A stretch of DNA of 64,000 nt from Candidatus Bathyarchaeota archaeon. GTDB lineage: Archaea; Thermoproteota; Bathyarchaeia; Bathyarchaeales; Bathycorpusculaceae. Both the position numbers and the translations under genes were made by a program. The DNA is taken from assembly GCA_963806535.1 (NCBI GenBank), contig CAWDYC010000004.1, positions 256,001-320,000 on the forward strand, read 5' to 3'. Below the pieces are notes generated by a model, which saw nothing but the letters and a program-made list of their open reading frames with translations, did no database searches and was not told the origin of the DNA. Positions within the stretch are counted from its first letter, which is position 1; each line of letters starts with the position of its first letter. Positions 9,684-25,799 of this stretch are shown here, piece by piece.

Positions 9684-9761
9684 TGGCGGGTCCGACGGGA
9701 ATTGAACCCGCGACCCCCGGATTAAAAGTCCGGTGCTCTAGCCTGACTGAGCTACGGACCC
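9684..9761 (-). tRNA. tRNA-Lys(TTT)
   Basis: Acceptor GGGTCCG/CGGACCC, anticodon arm CCGGA-CTTTTAA-TCCGG, GGTTCAATTCC T-arm, encoded CCA. Confidence 0.97.
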
Positions 9762-18501: not shown

Positions 18502-19179
18502 ATGAAAACAAGAAAAACCAAAACACCACACATACAACCAGACGCCGTCATAAAAGCAGCACTAGAAATACTAGATGCAGAAGGCTTAGAAAACGTAACC
18601 CTAAGACGCATAGCAGCAAAACTCAACGTACAAGCACCCGCCCTATACTGGCACTTCAAAGACAAACAAGACATCACAGAAGACATGGCCCAAACCATCC
18701 TCACAAACGCAAAACTCGACAACTTCACCCCACCAACCGACATCAACAACTGGCCTCAATGGCTAGCAGACTTAATGCATTGCCTACGTAACGCACTAAT
18801 TGCTCACAGAGACGGCGGACGCGTTGTTGCGGGAGCATCGTTTGGTCGCGCCTACGCTTTAGAAAAAATGTTAGCTCAAATTGCCAGGGTTTTAAACAAA
18901 GCTGGATTTGACAGCCTTCCTGCAGGTCTAGCTGCCGCCACAATAATCGATTACGTTTGGGGCTTTGTAATTGAAGAGCAAGCGGGCACTGAACCCGAAG
19001 CACTCATAGCGCACTTAGCCAACCCGCAACATACCCAATCCATCAGGACTAATTCAGAAGACGACGCATTCCTAAGCGCCTTCATGGAAGAATACCGCAA
19101 AACAACGCCAACAGAAACTTTTGACTGGGGCTTACAGGTAATAATAACTGGCCTAAAATGCACAATACCCAAACAGTAA
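18502..19179 (+). CDS. TetR family repressor with TetR_C domain
   Basis: AALEILDAEGLENVTLRRIAAKLNVQAPALYWHFKDK; HRDGGR. Confidence 0.92.
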   Translation: MKTRKTKTPHIQPDAVIKAALEILDAEGLENVTLRRIAAKLNVQAPALYWHFKDKQDITEDMAQTILTNAKLDNFTPPTDINNWPQWLADLMHCLRNALIAHRDGGRVVAGASFGRAYALEKMLAQIARVLNKAGFDSLPAGLAAATIIDYVWGFVIEEQAGTEPEALIAHLANPQHTQSIRTNSEDDAFLSAFMEEYRKTTPTETFDWGLQVIITGLKCTIPKQ

Positions 19180-19233
19180 ATTTTTCGTAAAGCTAAAATA
19201 AAAGTAGTATGTTTTGATTATTCTAATAAGGTA

Positions 19234-19326
19234 ATTCGGGGAGCTGGGAAATTGACCTGGCTGAGAGGGCAACTGTTTGTTGCCGACCCAATGAACCTGA
19301 ACCAGGTAATACTGGCGGAGGGAAAA
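19234..19326 (+). promoter_or_regulatory. TPP (THI-box) riboswitch
   Basis: Conserved elements in order: GGGGAGC, GCTGAGAG, GACCC, GAACCTGA, CCAG-GTAATA-CTGG, GCGGAGGGAA; upstream of a thiamine-related operon. Confidence 0.93.
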
Positions 19327-19329
19327 GAC

Positions 19330-19875
19330 GTGAACATAAATCTAATAAATAAAACAGACAAAAAACAATTTTCTCAGACAAAAAGAGTAGCGTTAACAGG
19401 AGTTATGGCAGCGTTAATTGCTGTTACAACTATTATTGCCATACCTTTGCCGCCCCCGCTCTCAACCATTAATCTCGCGCCTGTAATAATATTCGTAGTT
19501 TGCATTCTCCTTGGACCAATTTTTGGCTTAACCTCAACTGTTATCGGATGTGGCATTGGATACTTGGCTGGAACAAGCCTTGGGACAATAATTGTTCCCC
19601 CCGGATTTCTATACATATACTTGGTTGGTTTAGTCGTTGCCAGAGGTCCAATGGCTTTAGCTGTAGGTGCTTTAAGAAAGAAAAGTGAAATAACAGGGAT
19701 GGTTCTCGGCGTCATTATTGAAACGGCTATTTTCTTTAGCATCGATTTTGTCTTATTTGGGCTTGGATTCGCTGTGTTTGACTTGGGGACTCTTGTTGAT
19801 TTAGTCTTCGTACCGATAACGGTAGCAGTTCTCATTGCTGTAAGAAGAATTTTAGATACCAAGTATCTATCATAG
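19330..19875 (+). CDS. ECF transporter S-component (probable thiamine/precursor uptake)
   Basis: ALTGVMAALIAV, INLAP, LGP motifs and about six TM segments; GTG start 8 nt after GGAGG. Confidence 0.8.
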   Translation: MNINLINKTDKKQFSQTKRVALTGVMAALIAVTTIIAIPLPPPLSTINLAPVIIFVVCILLGPIFGLTSTVIGCGIGYLAGTSLGTIIVPPGFLYIYLVGLVVARGPMALAVGALRKKSEITGMVLGVIIETAIFFSIDFVLFGLGFAVFDLGTLVDLVFVPITVAVLIAVRRILDTKYLS

Positions 19876-19885
19876 ATGACAAAAA

Positions 19886-20557
19886 ATGCTTGACAATATG
19901 GATTTTGAGCAGGAGCAAACGGCTAAGCATTATGAAGAGTACTATGAGACTAAATACAAAAGGGCCGACCAGCTCGAAAAGAAACTTTTAACACAACTTT
20001 TCTCTAAATTTTCGGACGTAAAAAACGTTTTAGAAGTTGGTTGTGGAACTGGTCACTTCACTAGGTGGATGGACTCTTTAGACTTAGAATCAATAGGTGT
20101 TGACAAGTCTAAGAGCATGCTCGAAGAAGCAAAAGGGCGCTGGTCTCAAGGAACCTTGTTACAGACCGAAGGAAGCCGCTTACCATTTAAAGATAAATCA
20201 TTTGACGTTGTTGCGTTTATCACTAGCTTGGAATTTATGCCAAATGCCACGTTGGCAATTAATGAAGCCGCAAGAGTCGGGAAAAGAGGCATTATCTTAG
20301 GTTTGATGAACAAAAACAGCACAAGCACTCTAAAAAAGAGAATTCAAGTGACAACAAAAAATAACTCATTTTATCAACAGGCAAAGTTTTATTCGATATC
20401 AGACATAAAGAATTTAATAGAAAAAACTCCTGGAAAGCTCGAGATCACATTTTGGGCATCGACAGTTTTTTCCAAACCTTTCAATAAGATGGAGTCATCA
20501 CGTTTTCCTTTTGGAGCATTTCTTGGAATAGCAATAAAATTAAGGGATAATTCATGA
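19886..20557 (+). CDS. Class I SAM-dependent methyltransferase
   Basis: VLEVGCGTG, GVDKS, LPFKDKSFD. Confidence 0.9.
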   Translation: MLDNMDFEQEQTAKHYEEYYETKYKRADQLEKKLLTQLFSKFSDVKNVLEVGCGTGHFTRWMDSLDLESIGVDKSKSMLEEAKGRWSQGTLLQTEGSRLPFKDKSFDVVAFITSLEFMPNATLAINEAARVGKRGIILGLMNKNSTSTLKKRIQVTTKNNSFYQQAKFYSISDIKNLIEKTPGKLEITFWASTVFSKPFNKMESSRFPFGAFLGIAIKLRDNS

Positions 20558-21606
20558 GTGATATTGGCAAGTTTACGTTCGATTTAATTGAAAAATTGGT
20601 TTACCCCAAACTAGGTGCTGAAAGAGTAGAAGTGCTTGTTGGTCCTGGTGCCGGTCGTGATAACGCAGTTATCCAGTTGAAAGGAGGTCAAGTGCTAGTT
20701 ACGACAGCTGATCCCCTTTCTGTGATTCCTGCTTTGGGGTTTAAGGACTCAGCGTACATATCGGTTCATCTGATTGCTTCGGATTTGGCTACTTGTGGCT
20801 TTGCCCCTCAGCTTTTTATGGTTAATCTCAATGTTCCACCTGAAATGAAAAATGAAGAGTTTGAAGAGTATTGGACAAGTGTAGATGAAGAATGCAGAAA
20901 GCTCGGGATAGCTATCGTGGGTGGGCACACGGGCAGGTATGCTGGTTCAGGATACACAGTTATAGGCGGAGGAGTTATGATGGCAGTTGTACCTGAAAAT
21001 CGGTACGTAGCAAGCACTATGGCTAAGCCTGGCGACTTGATAATGATGACCAAAGGTGTCGCTATAGCTACAACGGGAATACTTTCTAGGGGTTTTCCAC
21101 AAACTATTGAAAAATATTTTGGGTCTGCTTTTCTTAAAAAGACTAAGCGGTACCTTTACAGCTTCAGCGTGGTTGAAGATGCGTTAGTTGCAGCTTCGGT
21201 AGGCTTGAGGGATCAAGGGGTTACAGCTATGCATGATGTCACCGAAGGTGGGCTGTTAGGCGCTTTATATGAGTTTTCAGAGGCATCGAATACTGGTTTA
21301 GAGGTTGATATTTCAAAGGTTATTATTACTGATGAAGCGAAAGAAATCTGTCAGCTGTTCAAGATTTCCCCTTATAAGACTTTAAGCGAAGGTACTCTGC
21401 TTTTAACCGTGAAACCTGAAAAAGCTTCAGCTGTTCAGCAAGCGCTTGATTTGAAAGGTATTAAAAATGCCATAATTGGAAAAATGAATGACGTCGCGCA
21501 AGGCAAATGGATCAAGAACGAAGGTAAGCAAGAGCATTTAGAGAGACCAGAACCTGATCCTTATTGGACGGCATATTGGAAAGCAACTAGTGAGGGTTGG
21601 AAATGA
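20554..21606 (+). CDS. AIR synthase-related (PurM/HypE/ThiL-like) protein
   Basis: TADP, ASDLA, IVGGHT, PGD, MHDVTEGGL, SEGTLL. Confidence 0.88.
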   Translation: MSDIGKFTFDLIEKLVYPKLGAERVEVLVGPGAGRDNAVIQLKGGQVLVTTADPLSVIPALGFKDSAYISVHLIASDLATCGFAPQLFMVNLNVPPEMKNEEFEEYWTSVDEECRKLGIAIVGGHTGRYAGSGYTVIGGGVMMAVVPENRYVASTMAKPGDLIMMTKGVAIATTGILSRGFPQTIEKYFGSAFLKKTKRYLYSFSVVEDALVAASVGLRDQGVTAMHDVTEGGLLGALYEFSEASNTGLEVDISKVIITDEAKEICQLFKISPYKTLSEGTLLLTVKPEKASAVQQALDLKGIKNAIIGKMNDVAQGKWIKNEGKQEHLERPEPDPYWTAYWKATSEGWK

Positions 21607-22241
21607 CACATTTCCGTGGTCTTAAGGGATTGTACCTTGTTGTATCACCAATTTTACCTTTTGAGCAATTGTTGCTTGCCACGGAAAGGGCGCTTGATGG
21701 CGGCGTTGACATACTTCAGTTATCAACAAGCAAAGAAAACCAAGAGATCAACGCTTTAGCAAATGCGCTTGCAGATTTAGCGAAGAAGCATGATATCCCA
21801 TTTCTTGTCAACAATAATTTAGAATTGGCTGCCAAAGTCAAAGCTGACGGGGTGCACTTTGACACATATGACGTTTCCCCCAAAGAGGCAAGGCAGGTTA
21901 TTGGCAATGAAGGCATTGTTGGTTATACTGTAAACGTTGATTTAGAAAAAATTATGTGGGCTGAACAGGAAGATGCAGATTACGTTTCATTCTGTTCGAT
22001 CTTTAATCAATGCCCAGGTGGACCATGCCCGATTGTGCCCCTTGATGCAGTAAGAAATGCAAAAACCAAGGCCAATATTCCAGTATTTGCAGCAGGTGGA
22101 ATAAACATTGAAAACCTTTTTGCAGTTCTTGAGGCAGGCGTGGATGGCGTTGTGGTTACATCTGCTATTCTAAAATCTAAAGATCCTAAACAGATTGCAC
22201 AAAGCTTTAAACAAATCATTAACAGGTTCCTTGAAAAATAG
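21603..22241 (+). CDS. Thiamine phosphate synthase-like TIM barrel (divergent ThiE/TenI family)
   Basis: LYLV, GGVDILQL, ADGVH, ADYV, AAGGI, GVDGVVVTSAI; several active-site motifs altered. Confidence 0.8.
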   Translation: MTHFRGLKGLYLVVSPILPFEQLLLATERALDGGVDILQLSTSKENQEINALANALADLAKKHDIPFLVNNNLELAAKVKADGVHFDTYDVSPKEARQVIGNEGIVGYTVNVDLEKIMWAEQEDADYVSFCSIFNQCPGGPCPIVPLDAVRNAKTKANIPVFAAGGINIENLFAVLEAGVDGVVVTSAILKSKDPKQIAQSFKQIINRFLEK

Positions 22242-23145
22242 TTAGCTTCTGCTTTGCCAGTGTTTTACTTCTTCAGTTCTGACAAGACGAAGCTTACTAT
22301 TTCTTCGGCTATGTTGACTTTTGCTACGACCTGCAAGCCTTTCCAACCAGGCTGACTGTTAACGTCAACTATGCGTGGTCCTTGCGGTCCCTCAAGGATG
22401 TCTACGCCCGCAACTTTTGCAGCCCACAGCTTTAGCGGATTTTATAGCTAATTCTTCGAATTCTTTGCTAATTGTTGCAGGCGCTGGTTTCGCTCCTCGG
22501 CTGTAGTTGGTTTTCCAGCCTTCCGCGACGCGGCGCATCGATGCAACTACTCGGTCGCCGATAACAAATGCGCGTATATCTGAGTGTCCGTGAGGTACAA
22601 ACTCCTGCATGTAGATGACGCCATGATGGAATGTTATGGCTTTGAAAACTGTGTCAGCAATGTCAGCGTCAACTACTCGAGTTGCGCCTTGTCCTCTGGA
22701 ACCGAAAATTGGTTTAACGACAACGTCTCCGCCAAGTTCGCTAAAGGCTTTGAGCGCTTCGTTTACGCTTTCCGTGGCTAATGTCCGTGGAACAGGAACG
22801 CCCACATCTTCAAGGAGCGCCAAAATATCATATTTGTCAACACAATGCTCAATGGCTGTTGGCGGGTTCACCATGTAGAAGCCTTGACGTTCAAGCTTGT
22901 AGAGCATGTCCATTCTGAAAACCAGTTCTTCAAGTGAACCGCGTCCAATCGGGCGGATAATGAGTGCGTCTAAATCGTCAAGGATGCTGGTGCCGTTAAC
23001 TTTGAAGTAGGGTTTGTACGCGAGTCTTGCGACAAGTTTTGGAAAAGTGAAACATTCGTAAGGTATGCCTCGTTTTGTTAATGCTTCCCGAACTTGTGTG
23101 CTGCTCCATGCTTCAGGGATTTCGCGTCATTATTCCAAATTTCAA
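22242..23145 (-). CDS. RimK-family ATP-grasp ligase, MptN-like (frameshifted)
   Basis: GRGSLEELVFRMD, VVKPIFGSRG, YMQEFV, DIRAFVIG, WKTNYSRG, NSQPGW. Confidence 0.85.
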
Positions 23146-23829: not shown

Positions 23830-25799
23830 CTACTTTATTCTTTCAAGCCGCAAAGAATTCAGCAAGAGCAGCATCGTGACTCCATCGTCACCTGCAATGA
23901 CGGTTGCCAGCAAACCTGTTACGCCGATTACTCCTAAAGCTCCTAAAATTAGTTTTATTACAAGTGATGCCGCAATGTTTTGTTTTGCAATATTCATTGT
24001 TTTATCGCTTAATTTTATGAGGTATGGAATTTGTGCCAGCTCATCTTTCACGAGCACTATGTCTGCTGATTCGAGGGCAACATCAACGCCCTGCTGCACC
24101 CATGGCTATACCAACATCTGAAGCGGCAAGTGCAGGAGCATCATTAACGCCGTCGCCCACCATTGCCACAAGCCCACCTTTGCCCTTCATTTCTTCAATG
24201 CATTTGAGTTTGTCTTCTGGAAACAGCTCCGCATAAACCTCATCAATCTTCAAAATATCCCCTGTCTCCTTGGCAATCTCTGTTCTGTCGCCAGTTAACA
24301 TAGCGGTTTTTATGCCAGTTTTTTTCAAGTCACTTACAGCTTTGAGTGCATCTTGCCTAACTTGGTCAACAACGCAAACTGCCGCAAACCCCTCTCTGCC
24401 AACAGAAACACAGACCGAAGTGTGAGTATCAGCTTCATCAATTGCGAAGGCTTCCGAACAATTACAATCGAACTGTTTCATTAACTCTAAATTTCCAACC
24501 GCGACAAAATCACCATTAACGTTACCTACGATGCCTTTTCCTGGAACCTCGGTGACATCAGTTATTTTGAACTTGCTTAGGTCAATGCCTCTTTCTGTGG
24601 CCCGTCGAACAATGGCTTGAGCAACAGGATGATTGGAAAACTGGTCAAGTGCAGCAGCATAAGCCAACGCTTCTTCTTCGGTTCTTTGCGTAAGCCTTAC
24701 TTCATGAACCGCGGGTCTGCCCATCGTTAAAGTGCCAGTTTTATCAAAAACTACTCGCTTTACCTTAGCTAATTTTTCAACGTAGATTCCGCCTTTAATT
24801 ATTACACCTCTTCTAGCTGCAATTGTTATTGCTACAAAAACTGTTGCGGGAACCGAAATGATGAAGGCGCTTGGGCAAGAAACCACAAGAAGAATAAGCG
24901 AACGGTACAGCCACGTATGGAAAGACATGCCAAAAACCAATGATGGCACGGCAGCGGTTAAAACGGCTAATATGATAATTATTGGCACATAGATTTTTGC
25001 GAATCGGTCTACAAGTTTTTCTATCGATGCCTTTCGTTTGCCCGATTGACCCAACAAGCACTATTATTCTTGAGACAAGAGTTTCACTGGCTCTTTTTGT
25101 GACAGTTATCTTTAGAGGACCACTCATGTTTAATGTGCCTGCATAAACGCAGTCGTTCAACTTTCTTAGTTACAGGCACTGATTCGCCGGTTACGACGGC
25201 TTGGTCAACATGTGAGAAACCATCAGCAACATTGCCGTCTAAAGGTATCCGCTCACCTGGACGGACAAGCAAAGTCATGTTCGGCTCAACTTGATTGACT
25301 CTTACAATTTTTTCCGTCTCCATCAGCGACGATTCTTGCTTGGTCGGGCATGAACTTAGACAGTTTCTCAACAGTTCGCCTTGCTCTATCCTCTATGTAG
25401 CCTTCAAAATATTCAGCAATCGAGTAAAGAAACAGTACTGTTGCCGCTTCAAATCGTGCATTAAGGTATAGGGCACCTAATGCTGCAGCAGCCATCAGAA
25501 ATTCAACAGAAAATCTTTTTTCAACAAATAGTTCTCGAAGACCCACTCACGCCAATGTATGCGGAAGCAGAGAGAACTGAAACATAATACAAAATTGTGG
25601 TTAACGTGGCTGGGACATTTATTATTGGCAGGTTAAAGCCAAGGGGGACTCCTGCAAAAAGGTAGTCAAGCAAACCACCTATCAGAACGGTTAAGCCAAG
25701 CAAAACTGCAAAGGAAATTATGACACGTTTACTTTCATGTTCCTCTGCTTCTTTCTGCTCTGGCTTTTCTACGCAGAATTTATCTTCTTCAGAAGTCAT
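23830..25799 (-). CDS. P1B heavy-metal-translocating ATPase (multiple indels)
   Basis: TGES, SCPS, DKTGT, HP, GDGVNDAPAL motifs across five ORF fragments. Confidence 0.92.

Follow-up and report, generated by a model that had tools for sequence, protein, structure and literature searches.

Operons of the thiW-thiM-thiE type under riboswitch control, and uptake by ThiT or PnuT with trapping of the imported vitamin by a kinase, are known systems for the salvage of thiamine (vitamin B1); for PnuT, the pairing of uptake with kinase trapping is reportedly documented in PMC5749112. TenI lacks a pyrophosphate site, and Trm112 forms holoenzymes with the methyltransferases Bud23, Trm9, Trm11 and Mtq2. 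Here, we describe a gene cassette that bears comparison with all of these, located in a stretch of 64,000 nt (hereafter, the window) from a Candidatus Bathyarchaeota archaeon (GenBank assembly GCA_963806535.1, contig CAWDYC010000004.1, positions 256,001 to 320,000 of the forward strand). Behind a thiamine pyrophosphate (TPP) riboswitch, it encodes an energy-coupling factor (ECF)-type S-component, an S-adenosylmethionine (SAM)-dependent methyltransferase, a PurM-like protein and a ThiE-like protein. We regard it as very probable that this is a real and widespread module with a link to thiamine, and as fairly probable that it is a TPP-repressed salvage operon providing auxotrophs with their only route to thiamine monophosphate (TMP), from which a separately encoded ThiL would make TPP.

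Layout and conservation of the cassette

The riboswitch is matched by the Rfam model RF00059 at 62.9 bits (gathering score, 54.3); the match runs over model positions 1-105, spanning the full aptamer, such that both score and length identify it as a TPP riboswitch. A custom model, R1, scores the same aptamer at 79.4 bits. It is the sole match in the 2.95 Mb, 12-contig genome to which the window belongs. The features of the locus are as follows:

19227..19340, + strand: TPP riboswitch aptamer (RF00059, R1)
19330..19875, + strand: ECF-type S-component, not ThiT (PF07155)
19886..20557, + strand: class I SAM-dependent methyltransferase (Methyltransf_11, PF08241)
20554..21606, + strand: PurM-superfamily protein, ATP-utilising, candidate kinase or activating enzyme (AIRS and AIRS_C)
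21603..22241 (alternative TTG start at 21597), + strand: ThiE-like TIM-barrel protein with an altered active site (PF02581)

The close packing of the genes behind the riboswitch, claimed earlier in a reading of the sequence alone, is borne out: a gap of 10 nt separates the S-component from the methyltransferase gene, and ATGA overlaps join the latter to the PurM-like gene (20554-20557) and the PurM-like to the ThiE-like gene (21603-21606). A Shine–Dalgarno-like GGAGG (19317-19321) is part of the aptamer's conserved 3' core and precedes the GTG start codon at 19330 by 8 nt, and ligand binding is thus predicted to mask both the ribosome-binding sequence and the start codon of the first gene. Relatives have either ATG or GTG where the alignment places this start codon, which supports the start assigned to the S-component. 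No intrinsic-terminator-like site was seen in 19000-22600.

The distribution of the cassette was assessed by a scan for the PurM-like pattern across one genome per GTDB species, which gave at least 594 confirmed relatives among at least 600 stretches; the best 80 loci were analysed. Genes for the methyltransferase, the PurM-like and the ThiE-like protein occur in that order in 68 of these 80 (tblastn), and they do so in Bathyarchaeota, Balneolota (Balneolaceae) and Bacteroidota, the last including Algoriphagus, Cyclobacterium, Mucilaginibacter, Pedobacter, Chryseobacterium, Christiangramia and Chitinophagaceae. The other 12 loci comprise three that are cut by contig ends (L083, L101 and L112) and nine that have neither the methyltransferase nor the ThiE-like gene. 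Using R1, a TPP riboswitch was found upstream in 67 of the 68 cassette loci, the exception (L124) having transposase-like open reading frames (ORFs) at this position; the Rfam model, applied at its gathering score, detects a riboswitch in all 10 cassette loci that were scanned with it. Clustering of the ORFs from the 80 loci yields only four widely recurring families, namely, the methyltransferase, the PurM-like protein, the ThiE-like protein and a Trm112-like protein.

Closer to the window, a comparison with 40 relatives revealed orthologues of the PurM-like protein (62-74% identity) in four, three belonging to the same genus and one to another family of the order. All four retain the order S-component, methyltransferase, PurM-like, ThiE-like, and all four have the riboswitch (three at the Rfam gathering score and the fourth with R1). 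Recurrence across two domains of life places the arrangement far beyond chance. Moreover, the inspection of gene neighbourhoods, proposed in the sequence-only reading, finds the methyltransferase strictly co-conserved with its PurM-like and ThiE-like companions, both in the 68 loci and in the four close relatives. Culturable carriers include Chryseobacterium aquaticum, Pedobacter sp. Leaf176, Algoriphagus yeomjeoni and Mucilaginibacter polytrichastri; Leaf176 is not mentioned in the accessible portion of the main text of PMC9666465.

The aptamers themselves differ between the domains. Those of Bathyarchaeota (the window, L031, L033, L034 and L066) have a long extra stem where those of Bacteroidota have a short loop, and they have GCGGAGGGA in place of the bacterial GCGTAGGGA, the former version yielding GGAGG beside the start codon.

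Thiamine genes of the carriers, and the ThiE-like and PurM-like proteins

The cassette ThiE-like gene is the sole member of the ThiE family in the window genome, and a true ThiL is encoded on another contig (C7:172074-173027; 250 bits). Searches of this genome for ThiD, ThiC, ThiM, Thi4, ThiN, TPK and TenA found none. Across the 41 genomes examined from the order of the window, ThiD (as ORFs of about 460 residues, the size of ThiDN) exceeds the cut-off in 10, all of them among the 36 non-carriers and none among the five carriers; ThiD was likewise not found in G055, G056, G058 and G059. Two archaeal carriers other than the window genome, one of them a complete chromosome, are without ThiD: the complete one has ThiL over the cut-off, and the ThiL match of the other is stop-interrupted and slightly under it.

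The picture in Bacteroidota is similar. Among 14 carriers, all have ThiL (300-333 bits), and none has ThiD, ThiC or a canonical ThiE over the cut-off; 11 hold the cassette ThiE-like copy alone, three hold a second copy that is below the cut-off, and TPK is present in two. The ThiG model gives partial matches in eight of the 14 (19.5-30.7 bits over about 50-110 of the 247 profile positions), which we tentatively read as other TIM barrels. In an even sample of 151 genomes from the order of Algoriphagus, the cassette methyltransferase occurs in nine and ThiC in 43, and no genome has both; related genomes not being independent, no p-value is attached to these counts.

The thiamine toolkit detected in both domains is, therefore, ThiL plus the cassette, so that the product of the cassette should be TMP or another compound that ThiL can use. 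The sequence-only reading proposed that a thiamine analogue or degradation product is taken up and remodelled by new chemistry. Import and processing of some outside compound related to thiamine fits these observations because the carriers lack the known genes for synthesis and salvage and yet keep ThiL; as far as computation goes, the proposal is supported, and the input may be an analogue, thiamine or one of its halves.

The ThiE-like protein belongs to PF02581 (140 bits) and scores slightly under the cut-off of TIGR00693 (140.4 versus 145.1), whereas its orthologue in G030 exceeds it (158.6). A confident AlphaFold model (mean predicted local distance difference test score, pLDDT, of 93.2) superposes on ThiE (PDB code: 2TPS; 26% identity) with a template modelling (TM) score of 0.86, and on TenI with 0.78; the family profile correspondingly gives 122 bits for ThiE and 68 bits for TenI. 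Thus, the protein is not nearer to TenI than to ThiE, and it reaches only 74.3 bits with NF005819, for which the cut-off is 251.

Alignment to Bacillus subtilis ThiE, in the chain numbering of PDB entry 3O15 (which equals the numbering used in the literature), allows the active site to be mapped. Equivalents of Gln57, Asn92, His107, Asp112, Gly188 and Ser209 are retained, and there are substitutions of Arg59 to Ser, Lys61 to Ser, Asp93 to Asn, Gly109-Gln110 to Asp-Thr and Ser130 to Thr. Expressed as motifs, Q57-F-R59 becomes Q-L-S, N92-D93 becomes N-N, H107-I-G-Q becomes H-F-D-T, and G151-P-I-Y-P-T156-E-T158-K159 becomes C-S-I-F-N-Q-C-P-(gap), followed by GGPC. Each of the substitutions listed in the sequence-only reading, including the loss of the active-site Lys, agrees with this alignment, in which Lys61 is lost too. 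We take Arg59, Lys61, Asp93, Asp112 and Lys159 to be the pyrophosphate and Mg2+ ligands of ThiE. In an alignment of the 68 family members (7 archaeal and 61 bacterial; repeated with 32 sequences), the lost pyrophosphate/Mg2+ residues are never restored, the bacterial proteins having Trp at the position of Arg59 and Pro at that of Asp112. Invariant positions are Gln41, Gly85, His87, Asp89, Gly109, Thr111, Tyr129, Ser131, Cys133, Cys144, Val147, Gly167, Gly168, Gly184 and Ala186; of these, Asp89, Cys133 and Cys144 were confirmed in 68 of 68 members. The contacts to thiazole phosphate and pyrimidine made by Gln57, Gly188 and Ser209 are kept as Gln41, Gly167-Gly168 and Ser189, which are invariant or nearly so. 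As to the gain of three Cys residues, also noted earlier, all three are present in the window protein, but only Cys133 and Cys144 hold throughout the family and Cys139 does not; a conserved metal site formed by the three was, therefore, rejected. In short, the protein appears to be a ThiE-fold enzyme that would still be able to hold a pyrimidine and thiazole phosphate, with an Asp and two Cys residues putatively replacing the machinery for the pyrophosphate leaving group.

These data bear directly on the proposal that nothing new is involved, with the ThiE-like protein functioning as a thiamine-phosphate synthase, the PurM-like one as an additional ThiL, and the methyltransferase being an unrelated passenger. 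In RefSeq, homologues from bacteria do bear the names 'thiamine phosphate synthase' and 'AIR synthase family protein', the TIGR00693 score is near the cut-off in the window and above it in G030, and ThiE is the nearest relative by both fold and profile. However, the hydroxymethylpyrimidine (HMP) pyrophosphate required by such an enzyme has no evident source, neither ThiD nor ThiC having been found in the window genome or in any of the 14 Bacteroidota carriers, nor ThiD in the four genomes named above; Arg59, Lys61 and Lys159 are lost family-wide; a separate ThiL exists in the carriers tested (in one archaeal carrier, only as the interrupted match below the cut-off); and the methyltransferase travels with the other two genes in 68 of the best 80 loci. 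We consider this proposal very improbable. That the PurM-like and ThiE-like proteins are simply ThiL and ThiE, which together with a methyltransferase that is not co-conserved would have refuted the sequence-only reading, is excluded by the separate ThiL, the missing ThiD and the lost ligands.

The PurM-like protein contains both domains of its superfamily above their cut-offs (PF00586, AIRS, 60.8 bits; PF02769, AIRS_C, 73.8 bits). It falls below the cut-offs for thiL (TIGR01379, 95.9 versus 184.15), hypE (TIGR02124, 88.8 versus 251.6) and selD (79.8 versus 125), and on these family scores its identification as ThiL, HypE, SelD or PurM was rejected. Its model (pLDDT 94.8) most closely resembles the fold of HypE (TM 0.78), followed by those of ThiL (0.67) and SelD (0.65); among solved relatives, the profile gives 84 bits for HypE and 50 bits for ThiL. 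In a tree, the family forms clades of its own, far from the ThiL of the window genome, although the branching order among the bacterial cassette, archaeal cassette, ThiT-linked or solo, and widespread archaeal paralogue groups cannot be read from it. The paralogue, 32-36% identical, is present in nearly all relatives, and in 10 of the 16 loci inspected it stands behind a different PF07155 S-component; neither R1 nor the Rfam model finds a TPP riboswitch beside it in these 16 loci.

Two further contexts of the PurM-like family were observed. The paralogue pair of the window genome itself (L003, G000:C4:108652-112440) looks decayed: its S-component gene is broken up into a pair of overlapping ORFs, and its PurM-like ORF is reduced to 284 aa, stop codons interrupting the region of homology. 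In two Nitrososphaerota loci (L069 and L070), which are alike, a solo PurM-like gene (42-43% identity) without a riboswitch stands back to back with a ThiI-family gene (PF02568, 190 bits), beside an M1 peptidase gene.

Importers, the methyltransferase and a putative route

The S-component of the window is assigned by PF07155 (38.4 bits versus a cut-off of 26.7); it has no match to PF09515 (ThiT, Thia_YuaJ) or in NCBIfam, and tblastn found no ThiT in the window genome, which encodes two EcfT/CbiQ proteins. There is no sequence relative in the PDB at E up to 1, and in the Atlas, the closest clusters consist of generic S-components from Bathyarchaeota and offer no hint of the ligand. An S-component of the cassette type precedes the methyltransferase in the Bathyarchaeota loci L059-L068. 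Other importers occupy this place elsewhere. Loci L071 and L126, from two further Bathyarchaeota, have a TPP riboswitch followed by ThiT (PF09515, 158 and 143 bits, respectively) and then the PurM-like gene alone, and both genomes have ThiL and lack ThiD; a Thermoplasmata contig has a riboswitch, a major facilitator superfamily (MFS) transporter and a PurM-like gene before the contig ends, and its genome does hold ThiD; and in two Bacteroidota loci (L085 and L102), a TonB-dependent receptor lies between riboswitch and cassette. The common denominator of these arrangements is an importer plus the PurM-like protein.

For genomes with ThiT, the PurM-like protein and ThiL alone, the most economical reading is a path from thiamine to TMP to TPP, in which the PurM-like protein is the kinase and also traps the imported vitamin. 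That it is a kinase for thiamine or hydroxyethyl-thiazole is nonetheless a tentative assignment, somewhat short of an even chance. It might, instead, serve the salvage of ring-opened or formylated products, by phosphorylating a formamide or amide oxygen and so driving ring closure or dehydration; formylaminopyrimidine and the open thiol form of thiamine are candidate substrates, and the methyltransferase and ThiE-like protein would complete the conversion. HypE is, after all, the nearest solved relative (84 versus 50 bits and TM 0.78 versus 0.67, relative to ThiL), and the known chemistry of PurM, PurL and HypE is the activation of an amide oxygen. Yet, this would leave the genomes with ThiT and the PurM-like protein alone without a step from thiamine to TMP. 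Moreover, the open thiol form re-closes spontaneously near neutral pH, and the C-terminal Cys motif of HypE is absent from the PurM-like protein, which ends in ...SEGWK. We judge amide activation to be unlikely, if worthy of attention.

Returning to the salvage of an external compound with the PurM-like protein as a kinase, we infer a second, non-thiamine input, because the S-component of the cassette is not ThiT, and because the methyltransferase and ThiE-like protein are strictly kept with the cassette. Conversion of this input would require a SAM-dependent step and a ThiE-like step that is independent of pyrophosphate.

The methyltransferase itself is of class I (Methyltransf_11, 65.8 bits versus a cut-off of 21.2). 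It belongs to none of the named NCBIfam families that it matches, BioC and UbiE/MenG among them: the best score is 60 bits against a cut-off of 155, and all 34 matches are far below. Its nearest solved relatives, all low-scoring, are the uncharacterised 2GS9 and 1VLM, LahSB and Bud23, which offer no hint of its substrate, and it shares 36-42% identity with the methyltransferases of the Bacteroidota cassettes. In bacterial cassettes, ORF clustering identified a gene of about 93 residues directly 3' of the ThiE-like gene in 54 loci; its product is Trm112p-like (PF03966), and most bacterial copies of the cassette include it. A model of the complex between the Algoriphagus methyltransferase and this protein scores 0.87, compared with 0.33 for the best control, and passes a mark that 58 of 80 solved complexes, and 2 of 110 mismatched pairs, also attain. 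Three runs share at least 72% of contacts, with a pLDDT of at least 88 for the partner, which is modelled against the central strand of the methyltransferase (residues 118-130). Since Trm112-methyltransferase complexes have already been solved, this result may reflect likeness to them and nothing else. There is no Trm112 gene in cis in the archaeal cassettes; a Trm112-like gene is found elsewhere in the window genome (C7:268604-268828).

The bacterial cassette methyltransferases are 72-88% identical across Flavobacteriia, Cytophagia, Sphingobacteriia, Chitinophagia and Balneolaceae (alignment A5), which indicates either strong constraint or recent spread of the cassette.

A SAM methyltransferase behind a TPP riboswitch is also a feature of the bacimethrin cluster of Clostridium botulinum, and one might imagine that the cassette likewise makes a thiamine antagonist or a methylated thiamine variant. 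The parallel is drawn from that cluster and receives no support from our analysis. The carriers are auxotrophic themselves, with ThiL as their only other thiamine enzyme, and the four families that recur in the 80 loci leave no thiaminase, glycosidase or hydroxymethylase among the conserved neighbours; we hold such a role to be extremely improbable.

The cassette could alternatively act in the repair or detoxification of damaged thiamine phosphates (oxy- and oxo-forms) and not in external supply. In its accessible parts, PMC11223231 (2024), on another orphan thiamine gene, argues that such thiamine-linked genes are likely to serve salvage or detoxification; neither a methyltransferase nor an AIR synthase is mentioned there. 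The ThiE-like protein, furthermore, retains the sites for both halves of TMP. Against this, the cassette is tied to importers (S-component, ThiT, TonB-dependent receptor and MFS transporter), no other source of TMP was found in the carriers, such that there would be nothing to be damaged, and repression by TPP suits supply better than repair. A repair function is, in our view, improbable.

For the salvage route that we favour, the following sequence of events can be envisaged. The S-component would import a thiamine-related compound other than thiamine, a role that would fall in some Bacteroidota to the TonB-dependent receptor under the same riboswitch. The PurM-like protein would carry out the ATP-dependent step, most likely as a kinase acting on the hydroxyethyl-thiazole end; it would make TMP from thiamine and/or phosphorylate the thiazole alcohol, and would thereby replace ThiK, ThiM and TPK. 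The ThiE-like protein would bind the pyrimidine and thiazole phosphate and would join or exchange them without a pyrophosphate leaving group, using the newly invariant Asp89, Cys133 and Cys144. The methyltransferase, in bacteria with the Trm112-like subunit, would ready the pyrimidine partner in a SAM-dependent step. Finally, abundant TPP would bind the GGAGG-containing aptamer and block translation of the first gene. A more specific version has the methyltransferase (with Trm112) methylating a pyrimidine breakdown product, for instance aminomethyl-pyrimidine or a thioether, and the ThiE-like protein swapping the charged leaving group thus created for thiazole phosphate supplied by the PurM-like kinase; this kinase would at the same time be the thiamine kinase that has long been missing from organisms with ThiL alone. 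This pyrophosphate-free, SAM-driven synthesis of TMP is quite unlikely in its details; if true, it would represent new enzymology in a 90-year-old pathway.

Several points weigh against the salvage route. The window genome is 91.75% complete; the gene searches left aside ThiK in all genomes and ThiM, Thi4 and TenA in bacteria; and the partial ThiG matches do formally pass the low Pfam cut-off. The PurM-like protein is nearer to HypE, which activates an amide oxygen, than to ThiL by both profile and fold, and an alcohol kinase would be new within the PurM superfamily. The paralogue that pairs with a PF07155 S-component in the absence of a TPP riboswitch means that the PurM-like family is not always linked to thiamine. 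If the PurM-like protein is sufficient for thiamine in the ThiT context, then co-conservation of the methyltransferase and ThiE-like protein demands a second substrate. In L064, an S-component of the cassette type lies directly before the PurM-like gene with no methyltransferase, the contig ending inside the PurM-like gene, and in G004 (a 71%-complete metagenome-assembled genome) two stop codons interrupt the PurM-like gene and a break in the N-terminal half disrupts the ThiE-like gene. Lastly, the substrates, products and activities considered here for the four proteins are predictions.

The surroundings of the cassette were also inspected. Directly upstream of the riboswitch, 18502-19179 (+) encodes a TetR-family regulator (TetR_N and a tetracycline-repressor-like C domain; NF010319, 138 bits versus a cut-off of 265), which is probably outside the module as it has a counterpart in the same place in only one of the four relatives (L033, 71% identity). 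Downstream, a convergent RimK/MptN-like ATP-grasp ORF of 173 aa (22392-22913, -) covers profile positions 76-248 of 291 (NF040720, 165 bits versus a cut-off of 350), its N-terminal part being apparently missing or separately encoded; the same stretch of about 169 residues is 89-93% identical in three relatives. Further on, the translations of two overlapping ORFs (24083-25057 and 23830-24099, together 23830-25057, -) resemble consecutive pieces of one P-type ATPase, and there may be a frameshift or a split gene here. A tRNA gene at 9687-9761 (-; 72.6 bits) has no relation to the cassette.

Comparison with known thiamine and Trm112 systems

No description of this gene set was found in the open full-text literature, a scope that lies outside subscription papers and supplements, and public records give the cassette proteins generic names only. 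Inability to make vitamin B1 is common among environmental bacteria and archaea, and for those in which ThiL is the only known thiamine enzyme the source of TMP is unexplained; the cassette is a concrete and testable candidate. If it does function in salvage, predictions of auxotrophy would change, and the RefSeq name 'thiamine phosphate synthase' would wrongly imply salvage of HMP and thiazole via ThiD. It would also bear on the B1-related compounds traded in soils and waters, and would give new functions to three large enzyme superfamilies. Additionally, a TPP riboswitch is predicted to be at work in Bathyarchaeota.

Taking the proteins individually, the ThiE-like protein has the TIM-barrel of B. 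subtilis ThiE (2TPS/3O15), which is its closest fold (TM 0.86) and best profile match (122 bits). It differs in the replacement of Arg59, Lys61, Asp93 and Lys159, in the change of Ser130 to Thr, in the new invariant Asp89, Ser131, Cys133 and Cys144, and in lying under the family cut-off; moreover, ThiD, which would make the substrate of ThiE, is absent from the window genome. TenI (1YAD/3QH2) also has the ThiE fold and binds thiazole phosphate, but is the weaker match (68 versus 122 bits; TM 0.78 versus 0.86), and the carriers have no ThiG pathway to feed it, apart from the weak matches to the ThiG model. The PurM-like protein shares both AIRS domains with ThiL, HypE and SelD, and its confident model superposes on all three, whereas its scores are below every family cut-off and its clades are separate; we know of no ThiL, HypE or SelD that has been described as linked to vitamin importers and a TPP riboswitch.

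The bacterial cassette resembles the Trm112 holoenzymes in encoding a Trm112p-like protein that is modelled on the methyltransferase, and Bud23 is among the weak PDB matches of the latter. However, the known partners of Trm112 methylate RNA or translation factors, whereas the cassette methyltransferase is encoded in a vitamin operon; to our knowledge, a class I methyltransferase acting with a Trm112 partner is not part of any thiamine pathway described so far.

It is with the thiW-thiM-thiE-type operons that the cassette shares its overall logic: a TPP riboswitch, an importer, an ATP-using step and a ThiE-fold enzyme. Here, though, the candidate kinase is of the PurM type and not of the ThiM, ThiD or TPK type, the coupling enzyme has no pyrophosphate site, and a methyltransferase is obligatory, joined in bacteria by Trm112. 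Every enzyme of the cassette thus differs in type or site from those of the known salvage operons, and overall, we conclude that the cassette is probably an undescribed route from external B1-related compounds to the cofactor.

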